From the NCBI GenBank assembly GCA_963799575.1, contig CAWCXK010000009.1:93890-157889 (forward strand): a DNA stretch of 64,000 bases, written 5' to 3'. Both the position numbers and the translations under genes were made by a program. Origin of the DNA: an uncultured Thermoleophilia bacterium (GTDB lineage: Bacteria > Actinomycetota > Thermoleophilia > Gaiellales > Gaiellaceae). Numbering within the stretch: position 1 is the stretch's first letter; the number at the start of each line of letters is the position of its first letter. Positions 40,603 through 64,000 of the stretch are shown here, one piece after another. The notes under the pieces are model-generated. The model had not been told where the DNA came from and made no database searches. It saw only the letters and a list, made by a program, of their open reading frames with translations.

Positions 40603-40623
40603 CGATTCAGCATTGCAGAGAGA

Positions 40624-41976: not shown

Positions 41977-42114
41977 GTGCCCTCCGACCCTCGCTTGGTA
42001 GCGGATAGTGCGATCGCCGGTGAACGTAACACGGAACCAATAAGAAAACAACCTAGACCAATATTGCCGAATACGCCATGAGGTCTGGTGTCTGTGCGAT
42101 GATATGAGCCGACC

Positions 42115-42882: not shown

Positions 42883-42923
42883 ACGCTCTCGAGCGGCGGG
42901 CGCCGCGCAACGCGAGCGGCCTG

Positions 42924-44030: not shown

Positions 44031-44070
44031 TTACCGCGCCGCCAGGGCAGGGGCAGTGACACGACCGGAC

Positions 44071-44105
44071 TGATACCAGATAGGCACCAGTCGGTTCATA
44101 CCAGT
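44071..44105. promoter_or_regulatory. Putative HutC/DasR-type operator(s)
   Basis: TGATACCA and GTCGGTTCATACCAGT in the divergent promoter. Confidence 0.5.
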
Positions 44106-44123
44106 AAAGTTGTCGGGGTGTCA

Positions 44124-44900
44124 ATGACTGCACGCCGCTCGCAAGAGCGCTCGGGCACGGCCGACGAGCCGCATCTGTACGAGCGCGTCGTAGCGCTCGT
44201 TTCCGACGACATAGCTACCGGTCGACTCCAGCCGGGCGAGCGCCTCACGTCGGAGCGTGCGCTCGGCGAGCGGCTCGGGGTGAGTCGCGTCACGATCCGC
44301 CGGGCGCTCGCGACGCTCGTCGAGCGTGGCCTCCTGATTCCCGCCGCGCGGCGCGGTTGGTTCGTCGCTCCGCCCTCGTCCACGAGCTCGTATCCGCCGC
44401 TCCAGAGCTTCACCGAGTGGGCTCGTGCGCAAGGTCGTGAGGCGGGCACCGTCGTCCTGGACGCCCGGGTGCGTCGCGCAGTGAAGGACGAGTCGCGTCT
44501 CCTCCGAGTCACGAGCCGCGCTCCGCTGTTCGAGCTCAAGCGGCTCCGCCTGATGGACGCGGTGCCGATCTCGGTGGAAAGCTCGTGCGTGCCACTCGCC
44601 GTCGCGCCCGCCCTGCCCGCAGTCGACTTCTCGGACGCGTCTCTCTTTGCCGTCCTTCGCACGCAAGCGGGAGTAGAGCCAACCCGGGCCGAGTCGAGCG
44701 TCGGCCTCGAGCCGGCTGACGGCCGCACCGCCGGCTTGCTCGAGATTCCCGAGGGAACGAGCGTCCTGCGCTTCCGCGAGACCGTCTACGACCAGAACGA
44801 TCGCCCGTTCGAGCTTCATACCGCGGCGAACCGCGGTGACGGCTACCAGTGGACGTCCGTCTTTGGATCGACCTCGGACAGCCTGGGCGTCAGCCGCTAG
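44124..44900 (+). CDS. GntR-family regulator, HutC/UTRA subfamily
   Basis: SERALGERLGVSRVTIRRAL; NRGDGY. Confidence 0.9.
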   Translation: MTARRSQERSGTADEPHLYERVVALVSDDIATGRLQPGERLTSERALGERLGVSRVTIRRALATLVERGLLIPAARRGWFVAPPSSTSSYPPLQSFTEWARAQGREAGTVVLDARVRRAVKDESRLLRVTSRAPLFELKRLRLMDAVPISVESSCVPLAVAPALPAVDFSDASLFAVLRTQAGVEPTRAESSVGLEPADGRTAGLLEIPEGTSVLRFRETVYDQNDRPFELHTAANRGDGYQWTSVFGSTSDSLGVSR

Positions 44901-45858
44901 CGGAGAGCCCCGTGGCCGCGAGGCTGGCCGCGATCTCGTCAGGGTGCAGATCGATCCGCAGGAGATCGAACGCGAGCGACAGGGCGCCGACTGCCGGCTC
45001 GAACGACGTCCGCACGACGCGCGACGCGCCGGCGGCTTCTGCGATCGCCTGTTCGAGCACACGCGCAGGATGACGGAGGGCGCCACCGCCGAGCACGAGG
45101 AGGCTGCCCGCTCCGTCGAGCCCGACGCGCTTCGCAGAAAACCTGGCCGCCGCGCCCATGAGACCCGCCTGGACGAGAACGATACGTCGAGCGACCGCGT
45201 CGCCTTCGTCTGCTTCGTCGAGGGCGATCGGGGTCAGGCGCGGCCCCAGCCTACCGTGTGGTTCTCCAACGCGATTGAGGATGTAGAGCAACTCGTCGGG
45301 GGAGTCCACGTCGAAGGCTTCGCAGACTCTTGCGGTCAGGGTGGTGGGCGGCCCCAGACCGAGGTCTGCGCGATAGACGGCGCTGAGCGCTGCCTGGGCG
45401 ATCGGCTCTCCGCCCATCGAGTCGGGCCACCACCCGCGGTGGAATACCTCTCCCTGATCGTTCCGGCTGCCGATAGCCGCCCAGGTCCCGACTGCGACGG
45501 CTACTCCGGTCCAGGTCGGCGAGCCACACCGGAGGATGCCGATTGCATCGTTGACGACGACGAGCGCGGGGATCGGGAACCGCTGCCCGAGGCGATGGCG
45601 GAGAAGCTCGAAGTCCTCCGGCCAGTCTGCCCCGGCAAGACTGAACCCTGCGCCGACCACCGTCGGGTTGCCACCCGGCACGGACCGCAGAGCATCGTCG
45701 ACCGCGGCGCCGATCTCGCCCACAGCGGCCTCGGGGCTCTCGGCTCCGTGGATGTCGGCACAGCCGGCACGCCCGATACCGACGACCGTTCCGTCGGTTC
45801 GGGCGGCCAGGGCCAATGTCTTCGTGTTGCCACCGTCGACTCCAAGAACGACGTCCAT
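44890..45858 (-). CDS. BadF/BadG/BcrA/BcrD-type (GlcNAc/GlcN-like) sugar kinase
   Basis: LGVDGGNTKT, LAGADW, VVNDA. Confidence 0.85.
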   Translation of the reverse strand: MDVVLGVDGGNTKTLALAARTDGTVVGIGRAGCADIHGAESPEAAVGEIGAAVDDALRSVPGGNPTVVGAGFSLAGADWPEDFELLRHRLGQRFPIPALVVVNDAIGILRCGSPTWTGVAVAVGTWAAIGSRNDQGEVFHRGWWPDSMGGEPIAQAALSAVYRADLGLGPPTTLTARVCEAFDVDSPDELLYILNRVGEPHGRLGPRLTPIALDEADEGDAVARRIVLVQAGLMGAAARFSAKRVGLDGAGSLLVLGGGALRHPARVLEQAIAEAAGASRVVRTSFEPAVGALSLAFDLLRIDLHPDEIAASLAATGLSASG

Positions 45859-47162
45859 CAGCCGAGTAGCCGCTCCGGGAGGTACGCACGATGGGCGACA
45901 GAAAGCTCGGCATATACCGCCTCCGCCTTGTCGACCGACTGGACGAGCGGGTTTGCCGCGAGGGCCTTGATCGCATCTGCCCGGGTTCCCGACCAGGCAA
46001 CAGCGGCAGCGAGCAGCTGATACTCGGCAAGCATCTCGACGAGCCCCCGTAGGTGCGGTGGAAGCTCTCGCTGGGGAAGCGGCTCGATCCATGCCGCCGA
46101 GCAGCGACCCGTGACCTCGACGACGAGGTCGTCCGGGAATCCGGGCAGCGAGCCCCGGTTCGGCACGTTCACCGGCAGCACGTCGCCCGTGTCGTTGAAG
46201 ACGGCGTGCATCGCGTCGATTGCGAGCTCGAGCTCGTTGATCCCGCCGCGCGAGCGATTCGGGTCGAGCACCGGATCGTCCGTCTCCGCCTGAGCTGCGT
46301 AGTGCTCCCAGTACCCAGGCACCCACGAGAGGATGTCCTCGGCCCGAGTCGTCGGCTTGGCCCGTTGCTCGGCGAGCACCTCGTCGCGCCAGTAGTAGTA
46401 CTGGAAGTAGTCCGCCGGGATCGCTTCCATGGCCACGGCCAGCCGCAAGATCCGTTGCTCGTGCAGTGTGAGAGAGGTACCGGGACCGAGGCGCTCGGCG
46501 GCCGCAGCGCGAAGGTACGGGATAAGATTCTCGCCATCGTAGGTGTGCTCGACGCTCCAGCATGCGTGGTTGAGGCCCACCATTGTCGAAGAGATGCGCG
46601 CTGGATCCAACCCGGCCGCCGCCGCGATCTCCTCGGTGAAGATGATCGGGCCCTCACAGAGTGAGACGAGCGGGATGTCCGTGTTGGTCGTCCACGCCTG
46701 GGCGACGATGTTGACCGGGTTCGTGTAGTTGAAGACTTTCGCCGACGGGCACACGGCTTCGATGTCGGCCGCGACACCCTTCATCACCTCGATCGCGCGC
46801 AGGGCCATGAAGAAGCCACCGACACCCTGCGTTTCCTGCCCGATCAGACCGTGGTTGTTCGCCGTCCGCTCGTCGAGGGCTCGCGCCTCGAACCCGCCGG
46901 GGCGAAAGCTCGAGAGCACCGCGTCGCACGAGTCGAGACCAGCGCGCCGGTCGGTCGTCGAGGTGATGCCGATAGCGATGCCACGAGCGCGAGCCATCTT
47001 CTGCGCAAGACGCTCCACCAGCGCGAGCCGGTCCGGGTCGAGGTCGATCAGCACGACTTCGGAGCCATCGAACTCGGCTCCCCGATGGTGGATGAACGAG
47101 GCCATCGTCCCCGCTCCACGCGTCGACCCGCCGCCGATGTACGCCATCTTGATCCGTGCCAT
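45858..47162 (-). CDS. Glycoside hydrolase family 4 (NAD+-dependent, 6-phospho-beta-glucosidase-like)
   Basis: YIGGGST, GQETQGVGG, NYTNP, LCEGP, GLNH. Confidence 0.92.
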   Translation of the reverse strand: MARIKMAYIGGGSTRGAGTMASFIHHRGAEFDGSEVVLIDLDPDRLALVERLAQKMARARGIAIGITSTTDRRAGLDSCDAVLSSFRPGGFEARALDERTANNHGLIGQETQGVGGFFMALRAIEVMKGVAADIEAVCPSAKVFNYTNPVNIVAQAWTTNTDIPLVSLCEGPIIFTEEIAAAAGLDPARISSTMVGLNHACWSVEHTYDGENLIPYLRAAAAERLGPGTSLTLHEQRILRLAVAMEAIPADYFQYYYWRDEVLAEQRAKPTTRAEDILSWVPGYWEHYAAQAETDDPVLDPNRSRGGINELELAIDAMHAVFNDTGDVLPVNVPNRGSLPGFPDDLVVEVTGRCSAAWIEPLPQRELPPHLRGLVEMLAEYQLLAAAVAWSGTRADAIKALAANPLVQSVDKAEAVYAELSVAHRAYLPERLLG

Positions 47163-47216
47163 ACCGCCTCCGAACTGTCGGGCGGTCGCGACGCGCCGCC
47201 GTTCGATAGCTACCAG

Positions 47217-47999
47217 CTAGGTGCCCCGCTCGTGACGAGAACCGATCATGTCCGGCGTCAGCCCGACCGCAGCATCGTCGTCGGCGACGATGATCAGTCG
47301 AGGGACGCGCCGCAGGTATGACGCCGGCACCTCCGGGGATTCAGAGCCGGCAACCGAACGGCGAAGGATGTCCCGCTTGTGCGCGCCGGCGACGAGCAGC
47401 ACGACGACCTGCGCCGAGAGCAAGAGGCCGAGCCCAGCCGTGATGCCCTCCGCCGGCACCTCCGCCCCATCCCAGTAGCGCGCATTGCTGACCATCGACT
47501 CCGGCGAAAGCGGCACGACACGTGTGCCGGCGGCCGGGCCGGAAGGAGGCTCGTTGAATCCGACATGACCATTCGGGCCGAGGCCGAGAACGGCAAGATG
47601 GAGCCCACCGGCTGCGACAACGGCAGCCTCGAAGCGGCTGCATTCCTGCAGGCTGTCGCCCGTTGTGCCTCGGAGACGGATCACGTTCGAAGCATCGACC
47701 CCGAGCGGGGTCAGGAACTCACGGTCGAGCCACGAGTACAGTGACCGTGGATCGGAGTCCTCTACTCCCAGATACTCGTCGAGCTGAACGATCGGACACG
47801 GCGGGGTGCCGAGCTCCCCTCGCGTGTGCCGGATAGCAAGCTCACGGAAGACGGGGATCGGAGTCCAGCCGGTGGCGAGGATCGTCGCGCCCTCGGGGCA
47901 GCCGTCCCAGACAGCCCCGATGACGTCTGCCCCGAGCTTCGCAAATGCCGCGTCAGATGGGGCAACGAGCAGTTCCGCTCCGCCGTTCTTCGAGATCAT
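47217..47999 (-). CDS. nagB: Glucosamine-6-phosphate deaminase
   Basis: LATGWTP, QLDEY, LGLGPNGHVGFNEP, VPAS. Confidence 0.82.
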   Translation of the reverse strand: MISKNGGAELLVAPSDAAFAKLGADVIGAVWDGCPEGATILATGWTPIPVFRELAIRHTRGELGTPPCPIVQLDEYLGVEDSDPRSLYSWLDREFLTPLGVDASNVIRLRGTTGDSLQECSRFEAAVVAAGGLHLAVLGLGPNGHVGFNEPPSGPAAGTRVVPLSPESMVSNARYWDGAEVPAEGITAGLGLLLSAQVVVLLVAGAHKRDILRRSVAGSESPEVPASYLRRVPRLIIVADDDAAVGLTPDMIGSRHERGT

Positions 48000-48074
48000 G
48001 CGAATCTGTGGTATTTCTCTGGTATCACGGAGACAGATCGTACTGGTTCGGCGCGCGCGCGTGCGAGGAGACGG

Positions 48075-48969
48075 ATGAGCAGACCTTTCCTCTCTCCCGA
48101 CGTTCTCGGGCCGCGGGCATTTCAGCTCGGCGAGAGCCCGGTCTGGCTGGATCGCTCGTCCGAGCTCGTCTGGGTCGACCTTGAGCAGGGCTCCGTTCAC
48201 GAATACTCCGAGGCACGGGGCATGCGTCAACTCGGCCGGCTGGACACCCCGGTTGGAGCGGTGGCACCAGTCAGGGGAGGCGGCTTCGTGCTGGCCACAC
48301 GCGACGGGTTCGCTTCAGCCGACGAATCGTTCGATCACGTGGAGCTGCTCGCGCCCGTGTCTCGCGCACGACCCGACGATCCTGATGAACGACGGGAAGA
48401 GCGACCCTCGCGGGAGGTTCTGGGCGGGGACGATGGACAGCGACGGTCGGTTGGATCGGGGCTCGCTCTATCGACTCGAGCCGTCGGGTAAGGCAGTGGT
48501 CGCGATCGAGGGCGTCTCGCTCTCGAACGGCGTCGGCTGGAACGACGACGGTACCCTCATGTACTACGTCGACTCGCCGACGAGGAGAGTCGACGTGTTC
48601 GACTTCGATCTCGACTCGGGGGAGCCACTCAACCGACGACCGTTCGTCGTCTGCGACGAGGGATGGGGACTTCCGGACGGGCTCGCGGTCGACACCGACG
48701 GCTGTGTGTGGGTCGCCTTCTGGGGCGGCAGCGCCGTCCGTCGGTTCAGGCCCGACGGGGCCGTGGTGGGCGGCGTCGATCTCCCTGCCAGCCAGGTCAC
48801 GAGCTGTGCGTTCGGCGGCACCGACCGACAGACGCTGTTCATCACGACCGCAGGGGGCTACCTCTCCGACGAGCAGCGCGCCGTGGAACCTCATGCCGGA
48901 GCGTTGTTCGCGGTCGAAACAGGGGTCAGCGGGGTCCGAATACCAGAGGTCCTGCTCGAGCGGCCCTGA
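48075..48969 (+). CDS. SMP-30/gluconolactonase/LRE-family protein (one +1 frameshift near 48360)
   Basis: LGESPVW in one frame; NDGKSDPRGRFWAG, SNG and PDG in the next; span 895 bp = 3n+1. Confidence 0.85.
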
Positions 48970-52800: not shown

Positions 52801-53625
52801 TTAGTTGTCTCGCGTCTCGTTGCCCGCGAGGAACGACGCCCCGCCCTGCCCCGATACGAAGCTCTTCTCTGCGAGGAAGCCGCCGTCCACGGGCAGAGCG
52901 ACGCCGCTCAGGTAGCCAGACTGGTCGCTCGCGAGGAACAGCGCCGCCTGCGCGACGTCGGCGGCGTTGCCGTAGCGCGCGAGCGGTACCGAGACGGCGA
53001 TCTCCTGTTCGAAGGTGTCGTCCGAGAAGTACTGCTCGGTCATCGGCGTCCGGATCACGCCGGGGCAGAGCGCGTTGACGCGAATCCCGTCCGGGCCGAG
53101 GTCCCGCGCGAGGCTCTTCGTGAGGCCGACGATCGCGTGCTTCGACGCCGTGTAGGCGGGCCGGTGGGAGAGCCCGATCAGGCCGCCCACGGACGAGAGG
53201 TTGACGATGCTGCCGCCACCTCCGTCGCGCATCCGGCGAGCGACCGACTGGCAGCAGTAGAACGTGCCGCTGAGGTTGATCGCGATCACGTTCTCCCACT
53301 CCTCCGAAGGCATCGTGTAGACGTCGCCGATCTCGCGCACCCCGGCGCAGTTGACGAGGATGTCGATGCGGCCGGTCAGGTCGACGACGCTCTGCACGGC
53401 GGCCTCGACGGCGGCCGGATCGCGAACATCGCCCTCGACGAAGAGATGCGATCCGCACCCCGACCGCTCCGCCCGAGGGCGCCGAGGAGCTCGTCGGCCG
53501 TCGCCCGCGCGCGAGCGGTCGAACGCCGCGATCCGTGCCCCCTCACGGGCGAATAGCTGCGCGATCTCCCGCCCGATGCCGCTTCCGGCACCCGTCACGA
53601 ACGCGACCCGGTCCTCGAGCAGCAT
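52801..53625 (-). CDS. SDR-family oxidoreductase
   Basis: TGAGSGIG, NCAG, YTASK; segment ~53450-53520 reads better in another frame (possible compensating indels). Confidence 0.88.
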   Translation of the reverse strand: MLLEDRVAFVTGAGSGIGREIAQLFAREGARIAAFDRSRAGDGRRAPRRPRAERSGCGSHLFVEGDVRDPAAVEAAVQSVVDLTGRIDILVNCAGVREIGDVYTMPSEEWENVIAINLSGTFYCCQSVARRMRDGGGGSIVNLSSVGGLIGLSHRPAYTASKHAIVGLTKSLARDLGPDGIRVNALCPGVIRTPMTEQYFSDDTFEQEIAVSVPLARYGNAADVAQAALFLASDQSGYLSGVALPVDGGFLAEKSFVSGQGGASFLAGNETRDN

Positions 53626-53679
53626 GCACTCCTCCTGTTCTCTCTCGACGGCGGTGGCTCCCCGAGTAGCATCGCGCAT

Positions 53680-54174
53680 ATGGACGAAGCCGTCTCGACG
53701 AATGCGCCGTGGGAGATCGAGGGCGCGCGGCACGGAGGCATCACCGTCTCCGACCTCGACCGCTCGCTCGAGTTCTACGTCGACCTCGTGGGCCTCGAGC
53801 TCGTGTGGCGCCGGGTGTACGAGAGCGACGCAATCCGCGAGATCACCGGCGTCACCGATGCGACCTCGGTCGACATCGCGATGCTGAACATCCCGGGCGG
53901 CGGCGCCCAGGTCGAGCTCCTCGAGTACCGGGGCTGCGAGCGGACGTCGGGGAGCACGCCGCCGAGCGACTACGGCACGGGCCACTTCTGCGTGTTCGTG
54001 CGTGACATCGAGGCCTGCCACGCCGAGCTCGCCGCGCACGGCGTTCGCTTCCGCTCGAACGGTCCGGTCGAGATGCGGGAGGGACCGAACACCGGTGGTA
54101 AGAGCCTGTACGGCATCGACCCGGACGGCTACATCTTCGAGTTCCACGAGCGCCCGCCGCATGTCGCTGCCTGA
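53680..54174 (+). CDS. VOC/glyoxalase-family protein
   Basis: HGGITVSDLDRSLEFY, VELLEY, HFC, DPDGYIFE. Confidence 0.85.
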   Translation: MDEAVSTNAPWEIEGARHGGITVSDLDRSLEFYVDLVGLELVWRRVYESDAIREITGVTDATSVDIAMLNIPGGGAQVELLEYRGCERTSGSTPPSDYGTGHFCVFVRDIEACHAELAAHGVRFRSNGPVEMREGPNTGGKSLYGIDPDGYIFEFHERPPHVAA

Positions 54175-56173
54175 GGTCGCGGGCGCGTCCGCCGCACGGC
54201 CGGCCGACCGGCCACCGCTGATCGACCAGTTTCGCCTGATGCTCCTGATCCGCTCCTTCGAGGAGCGCGCGGCGGCGCTGTTCGAGCAGGGAGTGATCTT
54301 CGGCACGGCGCACAGCTGCGTCGGACAGGAGGCGATCGCCGTCGGCGCAGCGGGGGTGATGCGCGAGACCGACACTCTCGTCGGCCATCACCGCTCGCAC
54401 GGCCACCTGATCGCAGCCGGCGCCGACCTGCATCGGATGATGGCCGAGATGTTCGGCAAGCGCACGGGCTACTGCAAGGGGCTCGGCGGCTCGATGCACA
54501 TCGCCGACCTGTCGCTCGACATCCTCGGCTGCAACGGCATCGTCGGGGCCGGGCTCCCTCATGCCTGCGGCGCCGCGCTGACGGCCACCCTTCGCGGAAC
54601 CGACCAGGCGACGCTCGCCTTCTTCGGCGACGGGGCGGCCGGACAGGGCGCCACGCACGAGAGCATGAACCTCGCCGCGACCTGGAGGCTGCCGGTCGTG
54701 TTCATCTGCGAGAACAACCAGTTCGCGCTGTCCGCCGACTGGCGCACGCAACGTGCGGTCGAGGATCTCGCCGACCGCGCCGCCGGCTACGGCATGCCCG
54801 GCGAGGTCGTCGACGGCAACGACGTGCTCGCGGTCGAGGACGCGGTTGGCCGGGCGCTCGATCTCGCCCGCAGCGGCGGCGGCCCGACCTTCCTCGAGAT
54901 GAAGACGTTCAGGCGGATGCAGCACTCGATGCGCGCGAACCTGCCCGACGTCCGCGACCGCGCGGTGATCGACGAGTGGGAGCCGAAGGACCCGGTGCCG
55001 CGATTCGAGGCGCTCCTCCGCGAGGCAGGAGAGCTCGACGACGACCGAGCGGCTGCGATCCGCGCCGAGGTCGACGCCCAGGTCGAGGCCGCCGTGACTG
55101 CCGGCCTCGCCGACGAGGATGCAACGGTCGACGACCTGCTGCCCGCCGTCTTTGCCCCCCATCGAAGCTATCCGGTCGCACCCGCTGCAGGTGACCGCGA
55201 GCTCTCGTTCATGGGAGCGATCCGCGAGGCTCTCGATCTCGAGCTCGCCGGCGACCCCGACGTGATCGTGATGGGCGAGGACGTGGGTCGCATCGGCGGG
55301 CTGTTCCGGGCGACGGAGGACCTGTACGAGCGTTACGGCGCCGAGCGCATCCGGGACACGCCGTTGACCGAGAGCGGCTTCGTCGGCTGCGGCATCGGCG
55401 CCGCGCTGACCGGGCTCCGACCCGTCGTCGAGCTTCAGTTCTCCGACTTCGCGGGGGTCGCGTTCGACCAGATCCTCAACCAGGCGGCGAAGCTGCGGTT
55501 CATGATGGGCGGAACGCCGAGCATGCCGCTCGTGCTCCGCATGGCCTCGGGTGGCGGCGTGCGCCTCGGCGCCCAGCACTCACAGAGCCTCGAGGCGCTG
55601 TTCTCTCACATTCCCGGGCTCGTCGTCGTGATGCCGTCGAACCCGTTCGATGCCAAGGGTCTCCTTGCCGCGGCGATCCAGGACGACAACCCGGTGATCT
55701 TCCTCGAGCAGAAGCTCCTCTTCTTCGGCGACGCCGTGCCCGTGCCGGAGGAGCGCTACGCGATCGAGCTCGGCACGGCGAGCGTCGTGCGCGAGGGCAG
55801 CGACGTCACGATCGTGGCGCTCGGGGCGATGGTCCCGCACGCCCTCCGCGTCGCGCGGGAGCTCGAGGCGGAGGCGATCGCCGTCGAGGTGATCGATCCC
55901 CGCACGCTCGTGCCGCTCGACACCGAGACGATCGCGGCTTCGATCGCGAAGACGAACCGGGCGGTCGTCGTCCACGAGGCGGTGCAGTTCTGCGGCTACG
56001 GAGCGGAGGTCGCTGCCCACATCTCGGAGCACTGCTTCTGGGATCTCGACGCACCCGTCACACGGATCGGTGCCCCGTCGCACCCGATGCCGTACCAGAA
56101 GGATCTGGAGCTCGCGACGCTGCCTGGCCCGGCCCAGATCGCCACGGCCGTCCGCTCGCTCGTCCGGCCGTAG
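54161..56173 (+). CDS. TPP-dependent 2-oxoacid/acetoin dehydrogenase E1, fused alpha-beta
   Basis: GGSMH, GDGAAGQG...ENN TPP motif; GEDVG, DTPLTE, AQHSQ in the beta part. Confidence 0.9.
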   Translation: MSLPEVAGASAARPADRPPLIDQFRLMLLIRSFEERAAALFEQGVIFGTAHSCVGQEAIAVGAAGVMRETDTLVGHHRSHGHLIAAGADLHRMMAEMFGKRTGYCKGLGGSMHIADLSLDILGCNGIVGAGLPHACGAALTATLRGTDQATLAFFGDGAAGQGATHESMNLAATWRLPVVFICENNQFALSADWRTQRAVEDLADRAAGYGMPGEVVDGNDVLAVEDAVGRALDLARSGGGPTFLEMKTFRRMQHSMRANLPDVRDRAVIDEWEPKDPVPRFEALLREAGELDDDRAAAIRAEVDAQVEAAVTAGLADEDATVDDLLPAVFAPHRSYPVAPAAGDRELSFMGAIREALDLELAGDPDVIVMGEDVGRIGGLFRATEDLYERYGAERIRDTPLTESGFVGCGIGAALTGLRPVVELQFSDFAGVAFDQILNQAAKLRFMMGGTPSMPLVLRMASGGGVRLGAQHSQSLEALFSHIPGLVVVMPSNPFDAKGLLAAAIQDDNPVIFLEQKLLFFGDAVPVPEERYAIELGTASVVREGSDVTIVALGAMVPHALRVARELEAEAIAVEVIDPRTLVPLDTETIAASIAKTNRAVVVHEAVQFCGYGAEVAAHISEHCFWDLDAPVTRIGAPSHPMPYQKDLELATLPGPAQIATAVRSLVRP

Positions 56174-56190
56174 CGTCTGGCGCGGCGCGT

Positions 56191-57363
56191 CTACCAGTCG
56201 CCGACGCTGCCGTCCGCGTAGAAGACCCGCTGTGGCAGCTCCGGCTGGAACGGATGCTTCGCGACGACGTCCAGGTCGATCTCGATCCCGAGCCCGGGCC
56301 GGTCGGTCGCCCGGGCGAGCATGCCCTTGCGATCGATCGGGTGCGACTCGCTCGCGACCTCGTCGCGCCACGGGACGTCGGAGGTGACCGCCTCGCAGAT
56401 GATGTACGACGGCGTCGCGAGACCGAGCTCGATCGAGGCAGCCGTTGAGACCGGCCCTTGCGGGTTGTGCGGCGCGAGCGCGACCCGGTGGATCTCGGCG
56501 AGAGCGGCGATTCGCCGAACCTCTGTGAGCCCGCCGCAGTGCGTGATGTCGGGCTGGATCACGCTGCAGGCGCCTTTCGTCAGGAGCTCGTTGAACGGCG
56601 CCGCTCCGACGAGGCGCTCGCCGGTTGCGATCGGCGTCCGCACGGCCCGCTGGATCGCGGCGATGTCATCGACGCGCTCCGGCCAGCACGGCTCCTCGAA
56701 CCAGAAGAGGTCGAACTGCTCGAGTGCGGCGGCGAACAGGTGCCCCATGCGCGGGCTCGGCCGGGCGTGGCAGTCGACCATGATGTCGATCTCGTCACCG
56801 ACGGCATCCCGCATCGCCGCGACGCACCGCTCGGCATGACGCACCGGGGCGAGCCCCTCGAGCGGCATCGTCGGCGGCACGGCCATCGACTTGAACGCGG
56901 TGAAGCCGTTCTCGACCATGCCGGCCGCGAGCTCGCCGAACCGCTGCGGCTCGCTGCTCTCGTAGAAGTCCTCCATCTTGCCCTCGCCGAGGTGGCCGTA
57001 GAGGCGGACGTGATCGCGCACCGGCCCACCCCAGAGCTTGTGACACGGGACGCCGTGCACCTTGCCGAGGAGATCCCAGAGCGCGATGTCGATGCCGCTC
57101 ATCGCCGTGCCGCGAACGATGTCGTTGCCGTGCCAGAAATGCTGGCGGAACATCATCTGCCAGAGGTGCTCGATCCTCGTCGGATCCTCGCCGACGATCA
57201 GCTCGGCCAGATCCTCGACGGCACCGACGATCGCCCTGGTGTGCCACTCGAGCGTCGCCTCGCCCCAGCCGTAGAGGCCGTCCTCGTCGGTGACGACCCG
57301 CACGAACACCCAGTTGCGCATGCGCGCATTGCAGACGTGCGCCTCGACGGCTGTGATCTTCAC
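56191..57363 (-). CDS. dgoD: Galactonate-dehydratase-like enolase-superfamily protein
   Basis: [37 protein letters not shown]; substrate inferred. Confidence 0.75.
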
Positions 57364-58740
57364 GCCGCGCCCCTGAGGCCGTCGAGCAGCTCGACGCTCG
57401 CATCGATCAGGTGTTCCATCTCGCTCCCGTCGACGTTCGTGTTGGTGATGCCATAGGCCCAGCGATAGGCGTCCTGGTCGAGGATGTCGTCCAGCGAGAC
57501 GTCGGCGACGAGGTCAATGTCCTCCGGCGGAGCGAAGTAGCCGGCGTAGTCGTTCGTGTAGCCGAGCGTCAGTGTCTGGGCGAATGGGCTCCGCGAGCGG
57601 ATCGTCGCGCCCGGCGTGTTGAAGAGCTCGAACGGGTTCGAGACGATCGCCGCGTCGCCGATCGCGAGCGCCTGCACCTCGGCCTCGACCGGAACGTCGG
57701 CCCGCTCGATCATGTCCTTGTAGAAGGCGAGCGCGGTTCGCTCGTACAGCGGCGGGTACTGCTGCGCCGAGGTCGCCGTGTGGACGGACTCGTCCCAGGC
57801 CTCGGGAAAGTCGGGCGCCGGGAGGGCCTCGAGCGCGGCGAGGCGCGCATCGATGTCCTCGAGCGCGTAGGGGTGCCGCCGGCGCTGCAGCTCGAGGCGC
57901 GTCGAGGCCGCGCCGAGCCGCACGTCCGCGCTCGTCTCGACCGAGCCCAGGGCCTCCACGGTCGCAGCGGCGACCGCCTCCCCGAGCTCGTCGCGCCGCT
58001 CGTAGGAGTGGCGCGATGCCTCCCAGTTGCCGAACCAGTAGTCCCAGCCGGCGACGTCGCCACCGCAGCCCGAGAGGAAGACGCATTCCGCGCCCAGGCG
58101 CTCCCGCTCGACTGCGGCGCGCAGCGGACCGGGAAAGTCTGCGTTCCAGAGCAGCGTGTGCCCACCCATCAGGGTCGGGTGGCACGCGAAGCTCGTCACC
58201 ACCGCGAGCGGCGTTCCGTCCGCCCGGTCGACTGACAGCACGCCGACCGTGGTGTCGACCGGGCGCTCGGGCACGACCCGGTTGACGGTGATTCCCGGCG
58301 CCGACCCCGAAGCCGGCGCCGACCCGGGCCGCCTCGCGCGAGCGCCAGGCGGCATAGACGACGCCCGCGATCGTCTCCGGCAGCAGCTCGACGTAGTGGG
58401 CGAACGCAGGGGCGTCCTTCAAGCCGACGACGCTGCTGCCGCGCGAGAGGCTCGGCGCGCTGTGGTTGTGCGCCGCGTTGACCATTACCGCGTGGGGTGG
58501 GATCCCGGTCAGCTCCTGCACGCGGGCGCGCACCGCGGCGGTGAGGCCCGCGCCGGCGAAGACGAGGTCGATCGCCACGATCGCGATCGTCGTCGTGCCG
58601 TCGTCGAGGACGAGAGCCTGGGCGCGCAGGGGGTCGTGGATCCCCTCCGCGAGACCGGTGCGGGCGGCCCAGCATCCATGGGGCAGGCCGCAGGGCGGCG
58701 TGATGTCGGCGCGTGCCACGCCGGCCTTCAGATCGTTCAC
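57360..58740 (-). CDS. Neutral/alkaline ceramidase-like amidohydrolase (one +1 frameshift at ~58305)
   Basis: [33 protein letters not shown]; span 1381 bp = 3n+1, extra base in a G4 run. Confidence 0.75.
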
Positions 58741-58756
58741 CGTGTCTCACTCCCTC

Positions 58757-59653
58757 TCATACTCGGATGGTCAGCTCGTCGTAGGTCTCGGGTCGGCGTT
58801 TCTTGAGCGCGAACCACGGGTTCTCGCGGGCGCGCTCGAGTCGCTCGGGGTCGAGCTCGACCCCGATCCAGGCGTTCTCCGTCGACGGCTCGGACCGCGC
58901 GAGCATCGACCCGTCGGGGGCGAGGACGTAGGCACCGCCTACGTGGGTGCTGTGCCCGTCGTAACCGACCATGTCGGAGAACACCGCATACACGCCGTTG
59001 TCGCGGGCGAGGAGATCGTGGAGCCGCGGCGGGAACGGCCTGTCCTCGAGCAGCTCCTCCTGGGCCAGCAGTATCTTCTCGTCCCCCTCGTGGGTCGCGC
59101 GCCCGTCGAAGGTGAGCTCGCCGCCCCCAGCAGGCATCGTCCGGTTCGCGTGAGGGAGCAAGATCACGTCGGCGCCCTTGAGCGCGAGGATGCGCCAGCT
59201 CTCGAAGAAGTCGCTGTCGTGGCAGATGGCGGTGCCGACGGTGCAGAAGCCGAGATCGTAGACGTTCCACTCGTACGCCTGGCGGAAGCGGAAGAACTCG
59301 TCGTACGAGGCATGCACCTTGCGCTGGAGCCCGATCAGCCCGTCCGGGCCGACGAGCGCCGACGTGTTGTAGTGCGTGCCGCGGAAGCGCTCGCAGAATC
59401 CGTACGAGACAACGATCGCACACGCCTTTGCCTGTTTCCGGATCGTCTCGAAGATGCGGCCGTCGTGAGCCTCGGCGAATCGGGTCACCTCGACGCTGCC
59501 GTTGTTTCCCGTGGCCGATGTCTCCGGGAAGACGATCAGCCGGCAACCCGCCTCGGCCGCTTCCGCGATGAGCTTCAGGTGGATCTCCAGGTTGTGCTCG
59601 ACATCCGTGTGCCGGACGTCCACCTGAGTGGCGGCAACCTCGAAGCGCTCCAC
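58757..59653 (-). CDS. Carbon-nitrogen hydrolase (nitrilase superfamily)
   Basis: E-K-C triad: FPE, QRKVH, AICHD; RRPETY C-terminus. Confidence 0.9.
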   Translation of the reverse strand: MERFEVAATQVDVRHTDVEHNLEIHLKLIAEAAEAGCRLIVFPETSATGNNGSVEVTRFAEAHDGRIFETIRKQAKACAIVVSYGFCERFRGTHYNTSALVGPDGLIGLQRKVHASYDEFFRFRQAYEWNVYDLGFCTVGTAICHDSDFFESWRILALKGADVILLPHANRTMPAGGGELTFDGRATHEGDEKILLAQEELLEDRPFPPRLHDLLARDNGVYAVFSDMVGYDGHSTHVGGAYVLAPDGSMLARSEPSTENAWIGVELDPERLERARENPWFALKKRRPETYDELTIRV

Positions 59654-59655
59654 GG

Positions 59656-60678
59656 TCAGTCGAGCTCCGAGCGATCCGCCTCGCGCGCGACGACGACGAC
59701 GTTGTCGCCTTGCTCGGTTGTGGCGATCGCACGGACGACGCACACGATCCCGGCGGTCTTGGCCAGGATCACCTCGGGCTCCCGGTCGGGGCGCTCGAGG
59801 AAGTGGATACGGCCGACGGGCTCGCCCGCCTCGACCCGCTGGCCGAGGTCGACGACCGTTTCGAAGAGGCCGGACTCGGGCGCGAGGAGGTAGTTGTCGA
59901 GCTCGGTCGCCATCAGCAGCACCGGGGCGGACCGGCCGAGTGACGCGCGCGTCTGCACCTCGCCCTCGATTACGCCGAAGTGGCGGAGGACGTTCTGGAG
60001 ACCGCTGAGCGCGAGGCGGTGGATCTCGGCCGTGACGTGGCCGCCTCCCCCGAGCTCGGTGCTGACGACGATCTTGCCCTGCCGCTCGGCCTCGCCGACG
60101 AGCAGGCCTGTGCCCGCGATGTCGATGTAGACGCAGCACCAGTCGGTGTTCCAGTGGAGCATCCCGTCCACCATCTGCCGGCGCTGCTCGACGTCGTCGA
60201 CCCAGTGCATCTCCGACCAGGGCAGACAGAGGCCGGTGCGGCCGCCGGAGTGCATGTCGACGACGATGTCCGAGCGCGGAAACAGCTGGGTCGACAGAAA
60301 GTGTGCGAGCTGCTCGTCCGCCGGGCCTGTGGGCGAGCCGGGGAACGAGCGATTCATGTTCGCGCCCGACGGCCACAGGCGGGTGTAGGCGCGCGAGGCG
60401 TCGATCGACACGCACGGGATCACGATCACGCGGCCGTTGACGTGCTCCGGCTGCAGGTCGCGCGCGAGGTTGAGCGCGGCCACCTGACCCTCGGGCTCGT
60501 CGCCGTGGACGCCGCCGAGGACGATCGCCGTCGGGCCGTTGCCGTTTCCGACCGTGACGATCGGGACGTACTGGTTCGACCATCCACTCGCATTCGACGA
60601 CCGCGGAACCTGGAGCTTGCCGACCTGCTTCCCGGGCGCGTCGAGGTCGATCGTGCAGAGGATCGGAGAGTCGCTCAT
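59656..60678 (-). CDS. AstE/AspA-family Zn deacylase (DoeB-like)
   Basis: GGVHGDEPEG, NRSFPG, DMHSGG, TELGGGG. Confidence 0.9.
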   Translation of the reverse strand: MSDSPILCTIDLDAPGKQVGKLQVPRSSNASGWSNQYVPIVTVGNGNGPTAIVLGGVHGDEPEGQVAALNLARDLQPEHVNGRVIVIPCVSIDASRAYTRLWPSGANMNRSFPGSPTGPADEQLAHFLSTQLFPRSDIVVDMHSGGRTGLCLPWSEMHWVDDVEQRRQMVDGMLHWNTDWCCVYIDIAGTGLLVGEAERQGKIVVSTELGGGGHVTAEIHRLALSGLQNVLRHFGVIEGEVQTRASLGRSAPVLLMATELDNYLLAPESGLFETVVDLGQRVEAGEPVGRIHFLERPDREPEVILAKTAGIVCVVRAIATTEQGDNVVVVAREADRSELD

Positions 60679-60700
60679 GGCTGCCGCGCCATCCTAGTGG

Positions 60701-60730
60701 ATTGTTGACAATTTCGCTATAGTCGACAAT
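60701..60730. promoter_or_regulatory. Tandem palindromic operator ATTGTTGACAAT / ATAGTCGACAAT (GntR/FadR-like)
   Basis: Two near-palindromic 12-mers in the divergent promoter; the first contains TTGACA. Confidence 0.65.
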
Positions 60731-60797
60731 CTGGCCGAACCGCCAGTGTGCCGTCCAGACCATCCCGGCAGCCACCCCGTCAGCTCAGGAGACCCGC

Positions 60798-61925
60798 GTG
60801 AAGATCACCGATGTCGAGGCCATCGTCCTACGGCAGGCGGATGTGAACGAGGGGATCGCCGACGGAAGCCAGGACGATCTCGTCGTCCGAATTCACACCG
60901 ACGAGGGCATCACGGGCATCGGTGAGGTCGACTCGTCGCCCGAGCTCGTCCAGGCCCTCGTGCAGGCGCCGAGCTCGCACGCTGTCGCCGTCAGCCTGCG
61001 TGACGTGCTGATCGGCGAAGACCCGATGGACGTCGAGCGGCTCTGGCAGAAGATGTATCGCGGCCTCATCTACTTCGGGCGGCGCGGGATTGCGATCCAC
61101 GCGATCAGCGGCCTCGACATCGCCCTCTGGGACATCAAGGGCAAGGCGCTCGGCAAGCCGGTCTGCGAGCTGCTCGGTACGCCACAGCGCGACCGGGTGC
61201 GCGCGTATGCCTCGATGCTGATGCCCGATACGACGGCAGAGGTGACCGAGGCGGTCACGGCGCTGAAGGAGCAGAACTTCACCGCGGTCAAGCTCGGCTG
61301 GGGGCCGCTCGGAAAGGACTCCAAGCAGGACGTTGCCCTTGCCGCGGCCGCCAAGGAGGCCGCGGGCGACAGCGTCGAGATCATGATCGACGCGGGTCTC
61401 GGCTACGTCGCCGACGCGAAGCGGGCGATCGAGGTCGCGCGCGAGTACGAGCGGATCGGCATCTACTGGCTGGAGGAGCCGTTCGAGCCCGACGAGTACG
61501 AGGCGTACGCCGAGCTCGCCGACGCCGTCGACATCCGCGTCACCGCCGGCGAGCAGGATGCGACCTGGTGGGGCTTCAGGGAGCTGATCGACCGGGCGCA
61601 CGTCGACCTCGTGCAGCCGGACGTGACGCGCTGTGGCGGCATCACCGAGACGCTCAAGATCGCCGAGCTCGCCCACTCTCAGGGCAAGGAGACCGTCCCG
61701 CACGCGTGGAAGAGCGGCATCATCAAGGCTGCCTCGCTCCACTGCAACGCGGTGATGCCCGACGGCATCTGGCAGGAGTACTGCGTCGCCGATACGCCGA
61801 TCGCGAAGACGTTGACCGTCCAGCGCCTGCCGATCGAGGCCGACGGGTACGTCGCGGTCCCGACCACGCCGGGCCTCGGCGTCGATCTCGACGAGGACGT
61901 GCTCGAGAGCCTGAGGGTCGGCTGA
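60798..61925 (+). CDS. Mandelate racemase/muconate lactonizing enzyme family protein
   Basis: SGLDIALWD, AVKLG, IDAG, LEEP, AGE, PH; AGGAG RBS. Confidence 0.9.
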   Translation: MKITDVEAIVLRQADVNEGIADGSQDDLVVRIHTDEGITGIGEVDSSPELVQALVQAPSSHAVAVSLRDVLIGEDPMDVERLWQKMYRGLIYFGRRGIAIHAISGLDIALWDIKGKALGKPVCELLGTPQRDRVRAYASMLMPDTTAEVTEAVTALKEQNFTAVKLGWGPLGKDSKQDVALAAAAKEAAGDSVEIMIDAGLGYVADAKRAIEVAREYERIGIYWLEEPFEPDEYEAYAELADAVDIRVTAGEQDATWWGFRELIDRAHVDLVQPDVTRCGGITETLKIAELAHSQGKETVPHAWKSGIIKAASLHCNAVMPDGIWQEYCVADTPIAKTLTVQRLPIEADGYVAVPTTPGLGVDLDEDVLESLRVG

Positions 61926-63241
61926 TGAGCCTCACCTCGTCCGAAGCCGCAGCCCGCCTCGCCGCCCGCGCCTCGGCCGTGATCCCCGGCGGCGTCAACA
62001 GCGGCCAGCGCCGCGTCCCCGGCCTCGAGGACCTCATCATCACTGCGACGAGCGGATCGACGTTCACCGACGGCGACGGTCGCACCTATACGGACTACCA
62101 CGCCGCCTTCGGCCCGCCGCTCCTCGGCCACAACGATCCCGACGTCGACGCCGCCGCGGCAGCAGCCGGCCGCTCGCTCGGACTGATGGGGATCGGTGTC
62201 ACGCAGGTCGAGATCGAGCTCGCCGAGCGCCTCGTCGCCGCCGTGCCCTCGCTCGAGAAGGTGCTGCTCACGTGCACGGGAAGCGAGGCCACCTTCCACG
62301 CGCTCCGCCTCTCCCGCACCGCCACCGGCCGGCGCCACGTGATCAAGTTCCAGGGCTGCTACCACGGCTGGCACGACTCGGTGGCGATGAACGTGATCTC
62401 GCCGGCCGAGCGCGTCGGCACCAAGGATCCGCTCTCGGGCGGCATGCTGCCCGAGGTCGTCGCCGCCACGATCGTCTGCCCGTTCAACGACGCCGTCGCC
62501 GTGGAGCGTGCGCTCGACGAGCACGACGGCGACGTCGCCGCGATCATCATCGAGCCGATCCCGCACAACATCGGTGCGGTGCTGCCGCAGCCGGGATTCC
62601 TCGAGCGGTTGCGCGAGCTTGCGACGAAGCACGGCACCGTGCTGATCTTCGACGAGGTGATCACCGGGTTCCGCCACGGGATCGGTGGCTACCAGTCCGT
62701 CGCGGGCGTGACCCCCGACCTGACGACGCTCGGCAAGGCGATGGCGAACGGCTGGCCCGTCTCGGCGCTCGGCGGCAAGGCCGAGCTGATGGACCTCTTC
62801 TCCACCACGCCGGGACAGCCCGCGTTCTTCGCCGGCACGTTCAACGGCCATCCCGCGACGACCGCTGCCGCCCTCGCCACGATCGAGAAGCTCGAGAACG
62901 AGCCGGTGCACGAGCACGTCTTCCGGCTCGGCGAGCGCGCCCGCACCGGCCTGACGGAGATCTACGACCGCCTCGGCGTGCCGGCCGTCGTCTCCGGCTT
63001 CGGCTCGGTGTTCGTCACCTACTTCCTCGAAGGGCCGGTCGTGAGCTACGACGACCTCCTCCGCAACGACGTCGACCTGTTCGTCGGCTACCGGCGCGAG
63101 ATGATGAAGGACGGCATCTTCGAGCTGCCGCTGAACCTCAAGCGAAGCCACTTCTCGTACGCCCACGTCGACGAGGACGTCGACCGCCTGCTCGCGGCGA
63201 CCGAGGCCGCCGTGACCCGCCACCTGGAGGCCCGCGCATGA
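61925..63241 (+). CDS. Class III PLP aminotransferase (GSA-aminomutase-like)
   Basis: IPGGVNS, GSEAT, YHG, FDEVITGFR, LGKAMANG, GTFNGHP. Confidence 0.9.
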   Translation: MSLTSSEAAARLAARASAVIPGGVNSGQRRVPGLEDLIITATSGSTFTDGDGRTYTDYHAAFGPPLLGHNDPDVDAAAAAAGRSLGLMGIGVTQVEIELAERLVAAVPSLEKVLLTCTGSEATFHALRLSRTATGRRHVIKFQGCYHGWHDSVAMNVISPAERVGTKDPLSGGMLPEVVAATIVCPFNDAVAVERALDEHDGDVAAIIIEPIPHNIGAVLPQPGFLERLRELATKHGTVLIFDEVITGFRHGIGGYQSVAGVTPDLTTLGKAMANGWPVSALGGKAELMDLFSTTPGQPAFFAGTFNGHPATTAAALATIEKLENEPVHEHVFRLGERARTGLTEIYDRLGVPAVVSGFGSVFVTYFLEGPVVSYDDLLRNDVDLFVGYRREMMKDGIFELPLNLKRSHFSYAHVDEDVDRLLAATEAAVTRHLEARA

Positions 63242-64000
63242 GCGATACACCCGTTTCGTGCTCGATCGACGTCACCGCCCCCGGCAAGCACGTCGGCCAT
63301 CTCGCCTTTCCGAAGATCACCAACACGGCCGGCTGGGCGACCCAGCACGTCCACATCGCCTCGATCGCGAACGGCGAAGGGCCGACCGTGCTCGTGCTCG
63401 GCGGGAACCACGGCGACGAGTACGAGGGGCAAGTTGCTGCGCTGCGCCTCCTGCAGGAACTCGAGCCCGAGCAGGTGACAGGACGCGTGATCGTCATCCC
63501 GGTCCTCTCGCCGGCAGCCTCGAAGGCGAACACCCGCAACTGGCCGTCAGGCGCCAACTTCAACCGCTCGTTCCCCGGCCGCCCCGACGGCCCGGGCAAC
63601 GAGCAGCTCGCCGACTTCCTCACGCGGAAGCTCTTCCCGCTCGCCGATGTGGTCATCGACATGCACTCCGGCGGCCGCACGGCCTGGTTCATCCCGTGCT
63701 CGCACATGCACGTCGTCGCCGACCCGGTGCAGCGCAAGGCGATGCTCGAGGGCATGGAGGCCTGGAACAGCGACTTCCACTTCCTCTACATCGACGTCAA
63801 CGGCACCGGTCTCTTGCCGGTCGAGGCGGAGAATCAGGGCAAGATCGTGATCACGACCGAGCTCGGCGGCGGTGGCCGCGTCCCGGCGCACGTCAATCGG
63901 CTCGCGTGGAGTGGGCTCAACAACGTCTTGCGCCACGTGGGCGTGCTCGAGGGTGAGGTGCAGACGCGCGCGTCACTCGGATTGCCGCCGGCGGTGATCC
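63238..64000 (+). CDS. AstE/AspA-family Zn deacylase (DoeB-like), partial at window end
   Basis: ATGA overlap with upstream gene; GGNHGDEYEG, NRSFPG, DMHSGG, TELGGGG; open to window end. Confidence 0.9.
   Translation, partial: MSDTPVSCSIDVTAPGKHVGHLAFPKITNTAGWATQHVHIASIANGEGPTVLVLGGNHGDEYEGQVAALRLLQELEPEQVTGRVIVIPVLSPAASKANTRNWPSGANFNRSFPGRPDGPGNEQLADFLTRKLFPLADVVIDMHSGGRTAWFIPCSHMHVVADPVQRKAMLEGMEAWNSDFHFLYIDVNGTGLLPVEAENQGKIVITTELGGGGRVPAHVNRLAWSGLNNVLRHVGVLEGEVQTRASLGLPPAVI

Follow-up and report, generated by a model that had tools for sequence, protein, structure and literature searches.

A conserved and apparently undescribed catabolic regulon of deacylases, ceramidase-fold proteins and enolase-superfamily enzymes in Gaiellaceae

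Layout of the locus

We have analysed a cluster of catabolic genes at positions 52801-64000 of a 64,000-nucleotide stretch of DNA (the window) from an uncultured bacterium of the Gaiellaceae (assembly GCA_963799575.1). The window corresponds to positions 93890-157889 of contig CAWCXK010000009.1, called C9 below, and C9 coordinates are contig positions. The cluster had been described in an earlier note, made from the letters of the window, as a gene set without a recognised pathway. Our data indicate a catabolic regulon that is real, conserved and, it seems, not described before, and that is assembled from known folds; for it gene content, synteny, intact catalytic motifs, a common operator-like site and the co-occurrence of an importer are established. 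The regulon may serve to import and degrade N-acylated amino-deoxy sugar acids, i.e. polyhydroxy amino acids in which one amine or two are acylated, a reading that we put at somewhat under even odds (roughly 0.45).

Every gene named earlier was recovered in its place and on its strand by open reading frame listing and hidden Markov model scans, and close homologues carry Gaiella or Gaiellaceae labels. Two arms, within which neighbouring genes overlap or abut, part across 119 bp (60679-60797), in agreement with the two coupled operons that the earlier note saw diverging at about 60.7 kb. The leftward arm (minus strand) consists of AstE1, an M14-type Zn N-acyl-amino-acid deacylase (59656-60678, PF24827), a C-N hydrolase of the nitrilase superfamily (58757-59659, PF00795, with E-K-C triad motifs), Cer1, a neutral-ceramidase-fold Zn amidase (57360-58740, weak PF04734 match), and DgoD1, a galactonate-dehydratase-like enzyme of the enolase superfamily (56191-57363). 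The rightward arm (plus strand) starts with MR1, a dehydratase-like enzyme of the mandelate racemase (MR) subgroup (60798-61925), followed by a class III aminotransferase resembling glutamate-1-semialdehyde (GSA) aminomutase (61925-63241) and by the second deacylase, AstE2 (63238-64000, 57% identical to AstE1), which ends 260 bp beyond the window at C9:158149. This arm extends past 64000 with a gene of the major facilitator superfamily (MFS; C9 about 158190-159437) and a second ceramidase-like gene, Cer2 (C9:159434-160819), both on the plus strand. A scan for sigma-70 promoters and terminators returned 0 and 0, and a look-up of RNA runs listed none.

Conservation and a shared operator-like site

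AstE1, AstE2, MR1, the aminotransferase and Cer1 stand in one conserved order in 65 of 80 GTDB loci (the best 80 of 96 matched by AstE1, read with a 10-kb flank, so that distal genes are undercounted), which argues that the gene set is not a product of chance. Fourteen of the 15 loci off this pattern stop at a contig edge and the other, L082, belongs to a different lineage. Taken singly, MR1 is found in 73 of the 80 loci, DgoD1 in 57, the MFS gene in 55 and Cer2 in 29. The C-N hydrolase is present in 38 and is thus optional, so that the four C-N bond hydrolases of the earlier note are all there as genes without all being constant members. The 79 metagenome loci matched by Cer1 (of 209 confirmed) mostly repeat the GTDB layouts, about nine of them carrying Cer1 without most of the core, and in genome G556 the whole set is contiguous except that the C-N hydrolase, Cer2, DgoD3 (see below) and the dehydrogenase E1 are missing. 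AstE1 occurs in 20 of 36 same-genus genomes, in 0 of 24 genomes from other families of the order (E<=1e-30) and in 1 of 400 other Actinomycetota genomes (E<=1e-50), and plasmid searches did not turn up a near copy of the cluster, the best matches having 29-51% identity.

A second lineage, the non-actinobacterial class of genome G061, has an AstE1 ortholog in 12 of 94 genomes. In all ten of those that were read, permeases, AstE1 and Cer1 are contiguous. Upstream of them there is usually MR1 together with an aminotransferase of omega type, another ceramidase-like gene and a binding protein that shares 48-49% identity with its Gaiella counterpart, so that the orthologous importer lies inside the operon; an omega-amine transaminase here replaces the GSA-like enzyme. 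Conserved synteny, which the earlier note proposed as a check on the idea of one pathway, is thus borne out by the five-gene core and again by the second lineage, which also keeps the set. The twin deacylases that it pointed out are not essential, since one deacylase was matched per genome in the second lineage and some Gaiellales carry three. In two genomes of this lineage an EF_0837-type amidohydrolase, which passes NF006689, is divergent from DgoD1 (L148:3691-4866); amidohydrolases of this type have a link to glucosaminate clusters, which the literature search did not confirm.

The divergent promoter contains tandem operator-like palindromes (60701-60730), namely two ATTGT-N2-ACAAT sites 18 bp apart at 60701 and 60719. 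If up to one mismatch is allowed, the genome has 6 single sites, compared with 8 and 10 in two shuffled versions, so that one site carries no significance by itself; the tandem pair occurs twice in the 3.34 Mb genome. The other pair (C9:174657/174675) lies 20 kb downstream, between a gene for a GntR-FCD regulator and the operon of a family-5 ATP-binding cassette (ABC) importer, and it is this recurrence of the tandem operator at the importer promoter, linking the core with the importer operon, that is new here. The earlier note proposed to look past 64000 for a transporter and a regulator, and the importer and the GntR-FCD gene, about 20 kb downstream of the 60.7-kb promoter, answer to both. 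The pair is present in 76 of the 80 loci, three of the misses being incomplete loci and one of the second lineage, and across 41 genomes the pair pattern matches in 24, typically at those two promoters, with 0 matches for the reversed control. The palindromic site stands at the regulated promoters and beside the regulator gene, as in GntR/FadR regulons, and we take it to resemble FadR-type boxes; that the GntR-FCD protein binds the tandem site is inferred. Among the 36 same-genus genomes, which as kin are not independent, the binding protein of the importer occurs in 19 of the 20 AstE1-positive genomes and in none of the 16 negative ones, the operator in 18 and in 1 of them, respectively. The single negative genome with the operator, G028, carries a decayed cluster (L259:7800-13300, contig C6) in which AstE1 and Cer1 are gone and AstE2 is truncated beside GntR, while both operator pairs are kept. 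The pair is duplicated ahead of an inserted module of an aminotransferase and a LysA-like gene in L048, L049, L094, L188 and L229. An extra operator-preceded module with genes for a small unknown protein, a shikimate-dehydrogenase-like and a TIM-barrel-like protein was seen in genomes G017 and G021 (L262:5029-7399, L263), with a remnant in G012 (L109), and in L186:659-5251 the pair stands ahead of a carbohydrate ABC importer that is accompanied by a DgoD-like gene, next to AstE1. A different GntR protein of ~310 aa is encoded between MR1 and AstE1 in L209:4407-5339 and L211:3379-4302, without the operator pair.

Three or four unrelated genes separate Cer2 from DgoD3 (C9:165039-166190, minus strand), which is followed by an Amidohydro_2 gene (C9:166215-167057, plus strand). 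The leftward importer operon comprises a threonine-aldolase-like gene (C9:167069-168208), a D-aminoacylase-like gene (C9:168249-169841), the family-5 binding protein (C9:171806-173386) with two permeases, and a frameshifted enolase-superfamily gene, MR4 (C9 about 173500-174620). The GntR-FCD gene, also frameshifted, runs divergently from about C9:174707, and two ABC ATPases and a CocE/NonD hydrolase lie on its side.

The binding protein has four invariant arginines (R178, R283, R426 and R429) and a Met in place of the Asp of the HbpA GDNGD motif, an Asp which presumably binds peptide N-termini. Because of these two features its ligand, as judged from sequence, would be an N-blocked anion; the predicted model was poor (pLDDT 61.5, pTM 0.50) and was not used. 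AgaA, whose ligand we take to be agropinic acid, is the first (single sequence) or second (profile) PDB match. This match and the Arg-rich pocket favour a substrate among polycarboxylate conjugates of diamines or diamino acids, such as lactam opines or citrate-type siderophores, whose lactams would be opened or citryl amides cut by the amidases before oxidases, an opine dehydrogenase, a decarboxylase and a transaminase process the amine. Genes similar to opine dehydrogenase, sarcosine oxidase (Sox), hydantoinase, CoA-transferase, MaoC and CitE in some loci are in line with this. The AgaA score is, however, about level with those of peptide binders (216 against 218-191 bits) and such neighbours turn up only here and there; an enolase-family dehydratase is not required for citrate and no iron-uptake genes were noticed in the loci, and we regard opine or siderophore breakdown as unlikely.

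Around the core, the presence of at least eight amidohydrolase types and of four enolase-family genes varies, as it would if the regulon scavenged mixed N-acylated anions and did not form a single pathway. The occurrence together of MR1, an aminotransferase, AstE1, Cer1 and one importer across two distant lineages speaks against this, and we likewise give it little credit.

The enzymes and a candidate pathway

The M14 Zn ligands (H-x-x-E...H), the catalytic Glu and the R/N-R motif, which we assume from aspartoacylase to bind a carboxylate, are kept in both deacylases, and H58, E61, R100, N109, R110, H143 and E208 of AstE1 are invariant in an alignment of 20 sequences. The likely pocket residues differ (P-W-S-E-M-H in AstE1, P-C-S-H-M-H in AstE2), which suggests that the two enzymes take different side chains. 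The third paralogue nests inside AstE2 in the deacylase tree, and the deacylases of the second lineage group together with one Chloroflexota protein and AstE1 (96/100).

DoeB is the only NCBIfam match of both deacylases, at about 38-40% identity, and this is what can be said for the catabolism of ectoine or hydroxyectoine, with a non-orthologous enzyme as ring hydrolase. The scores, though, are far under the DoeB cut-off of 402.7 (252.4 for AstE1, 268.5 for AstE2 and 209.4 for the third paralogue), and a 99/99 branch of the midpoint-rooted tree parts 32 cluster deacylases from two alphaproteobacterial AstE and the two DoeB rows that it contains. The earlier note saw no DoeA/EutD and kept away from ectoine breakdown, and this is supported by TIGR02993, which reaches at best 72.9 against a cut-off of 613 in five of five genomes, two of them single-contig, and by a Rhizobium etli DoeA query, the best match of which in the genome studied here (G000) is 26.7%. 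The accessible parts of two papers describe ectoine clusters by eutD/eutE adjacency, with exceptions (PMC8739950), or by EutD (PMC13188858). Neither an Ehu/Ueh transporter nor EnuR is among the genes in the loci read, and two acid-sugar dehydratases would have no substrate in ectoine. With the cut-off missed, a separate clade and DoeA not found, the ectoine pathway was rejected as hardly credible, and labels in databases that make these proteins, for example, an 'N-acetyl-DABA deacetylase' (DABA, diaminobutyrate) would seem to be over-annotation.

Relative to three of three relatives aligned, the Cer1 gene contains a single additional base near 58310, which splits it; many other genes of the contig are similarly split, and the frameshift is therefore probably an assembly error. 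The predicted model of an intact ortholog (pLDDT 92.8) has neutral ceramidases as its sole convincing Foldseek matches (TMq 0.72, TMt 0.50-0.53). In 57 Cer1 sequences H89, H91, N151, R152, H185, E369, Y399 and Y427 are invariant, and we assume for them the catalytic and Zn-binding roles of the ceramidase residues. The PF04734 scores of the ceramidase-like proteins are near or under the gathering score. Compared with the neutral ceramidases of Pseudomonas aeruginosa (2ZWS) and man (4WGK), which have 630-670 aa including a C-terminal domain, Cer1 has the fold and the Zn/catalytic residues in common, but at about 455 aa and 15-17% identity it is about 200 residues shorter, lacks that full length, and sits in a small-molecule catabolic operon. 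The cluster offers a handle on ceramidase-like proteins, the profile of which matches 29,946 clusters at 50% identity.

DgoD1 reaches 303.7 bits against a cut-off of 311 in NF010624 and has the residues D197-x-H199, E223, E249 and H299, with the His pair present in the alignment with 3rr1. Neither dgoK nor dgoA was found beside it, as no kinase or KDPG-type aldolase is among its recurring neighbours. A further DgoD/ManD-like gene in the window (about 37565-38791) is 41% identical to DgoD3 and is without the operator pair. MR1 has 3sjn as its best PDB match (E 1e-89) and is under all NCBIfam cut-offs; L-rhamnonate dehydratase was rejected as its identity (NF011968, 179.9 against 393). In the alignment MR1 has K-x-G, hence one Lys only, plus the His/Asp pair, and by the usual logic of the enolase family this fits a dehydratase better than a racemase, as far as sequence can tell. 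The closest plasmid homologues of MR1 (37-44%; L155:8379-12260, L266:4050-8745) include tandem MR genes with a betaine/choline/carnitine (BCCT) transporter in Pseudomonas and Psychrobacter, which hints at a hydroxy-acid betaine as substrate there.

The best models of the four enolase-superfamily genes in the regulon are all acid-sugar dehydratases except for that of MR4. A further reading of the cluster is the recycling of unusual peptidoglycan peptides or cross-linked diamino acids. In E. coli mpaA-ycjG-mppA, an M14 amidase, an MLE-type epimerase and a family-5 importer are combined, and the same three superfamilies are present here, along with D-aminoacylase-like, gamma-glutamyltransferase (GGT), CocE and LysA-like genes. 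MR4 nevertheless scores only 113 against 500 in the Ala-Glu epimerase model and has a Tyr where two-base epimerases, we believe, have their second Lys; the amine-binding Asp is missing from the binding protein, and dehydratases and ceramidase-like enzymes would be left unexplained. Such recycling therefore appears very unlikely.

That the aminotransferase belongs to class III was correctly read from the window, its type being GSA-aminomutase-like and not that of the GABA-type DoeD. It scores 381 against 398 in NF000818 and 354.6 against 527.3 in TIGR00713. S26, R29 and K271 are invariant, and the S-x-x-R motif of GSA aminomutase, to which we ascribe a role in substrate binding, is kept. HemL was nonetheless rejected, as the hemL cut-off is missed and the gating loop differs; two other HemL-like loci are on contig C6, one frameshifted and none above the hemL cut-off. 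A homologue of 45-47% identity on Shinella and Agrobacterium plasmids (L123:8110-19909, L124) adjoins a split transketolase, an ABC importer, an SDR, a second aminotransferase and an amidase.

The several deacylase paralogues with different pockets and the N-blocked anionic ligand could also be explained if the substrates were amides of a sugar acid, as the acyl part, with an amino acid or amino alcohol. Amidases would free both halves, the dehydratases taking the acid and pyridoxal-phosphate enzymes the amine, and the threonine-aldolase-like, LysA-like, opine-dehydrogenase-like and omega-transaminase genes would find a place. Uronoyl- or aldonoyl-Lys, -Orn, -Thr or -serinol from surface glycans, or Maillard amide adducts, are examples of such compounds. 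On the other hand, MR1 and an aminotransferase lie side by side in the same orientation in both lineages, an arrangement that suits a single skeleton; neither a uronate isomerase nor a conserved uronate dehydrogenase is among the genes scanned, and the literature search gave nothing. We hold sugar-acid amides to be somewhat unlikely as the substrate.

We therefore return to the N-acylated amino-deoxy sugar acids. To suit the core, a substrate must be both an alpha-N-acyl acid and a beta-hydroxy acid and must have a second amide as well as a distal amine; one skeleton that combines all four is an N-acylated amino-deoxy aldonate whose amines are at C2 and/or C4. The DoeB substrate has amines at C2 and C4, the amine of GSA sits at C4, and an amide at C4 with a hydroxyl on either side looks like the head of ceramide. 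In the proposed pathway the family-5 system would import an N-blocked anionic solute, the FCD-GntR protein repressing both promoters until the solute appears. AstE1 and AstE2, which would differ in the side chains that they accept, would strip an acyl group from the alpha-amine beside the free carboxylate, and Cer1 (and Cer2) would cleave the second amide on a hydroxyl-flanked amine, as in ceramide. The GSA-like aminotransferase would convert the freed distal amine, probably at C4, to a ketone, and MR1 and DgoD1 would remove water from the hydroxy acid to give a 2-keto-3-deoxy acid; these steps, from deacylation to dehydration, could run in any order. Lineage-variable aldolases or hydrolases, possibly with the SDR-VOC-E1 unit described below, would then cut the chain. 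The variable neighbours comprise keto-deoxy-acid enzymes, i.e. an RraA aldolase, a DapA-like protein, a fumarylacetoacetate-hydrolase-family (FAH) protein with 2,4-didehydro-3-deoxy-rhamnonate hydrolase as its best model (243 against 500) and a gluconate-5-dehydrogenase-like SDR. They fit keto-deoxy acid products, but none of them passes a specific cut-off, and several may be bystanders.

Several observations weigh against amino-deoxy sugar acids. No core enzyme passes any substrate-specific cut-off. The core has no kinase, conserved sugar dehydrogenase or glycosidase, so that the acid must be supplied in finished form. N-acyl-D-Glu deacylase is a nearer relative of the D-aminoacylase-like protein than OngB is, and the protein does not have the arginine of the H-P-R motif. 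Neighbours that are LysA-like (above the lysA cut-off), opine-dehydrogenase-like, sarcosine-oxidase-like or GGT suit a moiety of amino-acid or diamine kind better than an amine carried on a sugar. Twenty-three of the 80 loci (some at contig ends) and most second-lineage operons have no DgoD1, and the operator was not found in the second lineage. Of the earlier suggestion of a multiply N-acylated amino-sugar acid or diamino acid, the chemistry, which points to N-acylated hydroxy or amino acids, is upheld, and the substrate class stays conjectural.

A bolder version, which we consider rather doubtful, is that the cluster encodes the first known route for breaking down N-acylated 4-amino and 2,4-diamino deoxy-sugar acids of bacterial surface glycans (perosamine, viosamine and bacillosamine types), in which ceramidase-fold proteins would be small-molecule amino-polyol deacylases and the GSA-like transaminase would yield a 2,4-diketo or acyloin product for a hydrolase or for thiamine pyrophosphate (TPP)-dependent cleavage. 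Gaiellales, which are common in soil and the catabolism of which is little known, would then recycle the nitrogen of glycans from necromass, and a first non-lipid function would be assigned to a family with some 30,000 sequence clusters. That 20 of 36 sampled species hold the regulon, and a second lineage shares it, suggests a nitrogen substrate that is common in soil. All the enzyme folds are already known, and uncharacterised catabolic clusters are common.

Left of the core, a VOC/glyoxalase-fold protein (53680-54174, plus strand; PF00903, E 4e-14) and a fused alpha/beta TPP dehydrogenase E1 (54161-56173, plus strand; PF00676, PF02779 and PF02780, GDGA..NN motif, no adjoining E2) converge on DgoD1. 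The SDR oxidoreductase that travels with them (52801-53625, minus strand; PF13561, E 1.7e-69, GxxxGIG and YxxxK motifs) is divergent, an arrangement already recognised in the window. TPP cleavage had been counted among the pathway steps, and this was not sustained: no operator pair was found upstream of the unit, which adjoins the core in 5 of the 80 GTDB and 4 of the 79 metagenome loci, is mostly elsewhere in the genome among unrelated neighbours, and in Fuscovulum forms a fused E1-E2-SDR-VOC module with its own LysR (50/36/34% identity, VOC being the 34%). A place for it in the core is not supported. Of the 20 genomes with the cluster 17 have a close E1 ortholog (at least 63%), and of the 16 without it 2 have one. 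The unit is an independent accessory of diol/acyloin- or oxo-acid type, and it may use a product of the core pathway. Next to it, an SDR and a cytochrome P450 (50747-52767) converge on the unit, a pair that travels with it in L023, L024 and L057 only (in L057 an SDR and a weak P450). Further left, at 40000-48230, lies a separate sugar cluster in which we recognise, going by motifs in the translations, a carbohydrate ABC system, two GntR/HutC-type regulators and GH4-like, BadF-like kinase and glucosamine-6-phosphate (GlcN6P)-deaminase-like genes.

Comparison with known systems

No description of this gene set was found in the literature, most subscription journals being outside the search, and the words 'ectoine', 'galactonate' and 'amino sugar' do not occur in the accessible part of the Gaiella occulta genome paper. 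That the earlier note did not recognise the set as a described pathway is in keeping with this, as no published gene-for-gene match was found.

Non-phosphorylative acid-sugar pathways use DgoD, RhamD and the diketo-hydrolase route. The cluster is like them in having enolase-family dehydratases with variable keto-deoxy-acid aldolase or hydrolase neighbours, but its core dehydratases are sub-cut-off and embedded among amidases and aminotransferases.

A possible remote analogue is the alphaproteobacterial cluster GntR-ABC5-SDR-SDR-MR<>AstE-MlrC-MR of Cereibacter and Martelella (L126, L127), which likewise has a divergent MR gene (K-x-G-W-G-P motif) and AstE, a family-5 importer and a GntR regulator. 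Enzymes, binding protein and regulator are, however, only 29-40% identical, MlrC replaces the ceramidase-like genes, and the stretch read has no aminotransferase. The Cereibacter AstE is near-identical to PDB 3CDX over the aligned stretch, and the literature search gave no paper with a function for 3CDX or for this cluster. An MlrC (M81) homologue, 58% identical to the Martelella one, is found elsewhere in the genome studied here (G000:C5:169612-171087).

With the Doe/Eut system (eutD-eutE = doeA-doeB, atf, ssd; described in the accessible parts of PMC8739950 and PMC13188858) the cluster shares an M14-type deacylase that agrees with DoeB in its Zn and catalytic residues (about 39% identity overall), a hydrolase beside that deacylase, an aminotransferase and GntR-superfamily control. 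It differs in having no DoeA, a ceramidase-fold amidase beside the deacylase, a GSA-type aminotransferase, enolase-family dehydratases, a family-5 ABC importer, and FCD-GntR instead of EnuR.

The oxidative chitin (Ong) pathway for N-acetylglucosaminate, in the portions available of PMC9537276 and PMC12017989, deacylates and deaminates an N-acyl amino-aldonate to a 2-keto-3-deoxy acid, as proposed here. OngB, an enzyme of amino-acid-deacylase fold, acts there on an amino-sugar acid (PMC12017989, same portion) and is thus a precedent for such folds acting on amino-sugar acids. Unlike in the Ong pathway, the fold-type-III OngC, KdgK and an SSS transporter are not among the genes annotated in the loci, to which the comparison was confined without a genome-wide search. 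OngB was rejected as the identity of the D-aminoacylase-like protein, which has 164 bits to it and 201 to N-acyl-D-Glu deacylase. An arginine is strictly conserved in OngB and D-aminoacylases (Arg379; PMC12017989, in the part available), and the cluster protein has H-P-L for the H-P-R of D-aminoacylases, a position that appears to map to Arg379. The cluster resembles the Ong and Doe/Eut systems in logic and fails membership of both.

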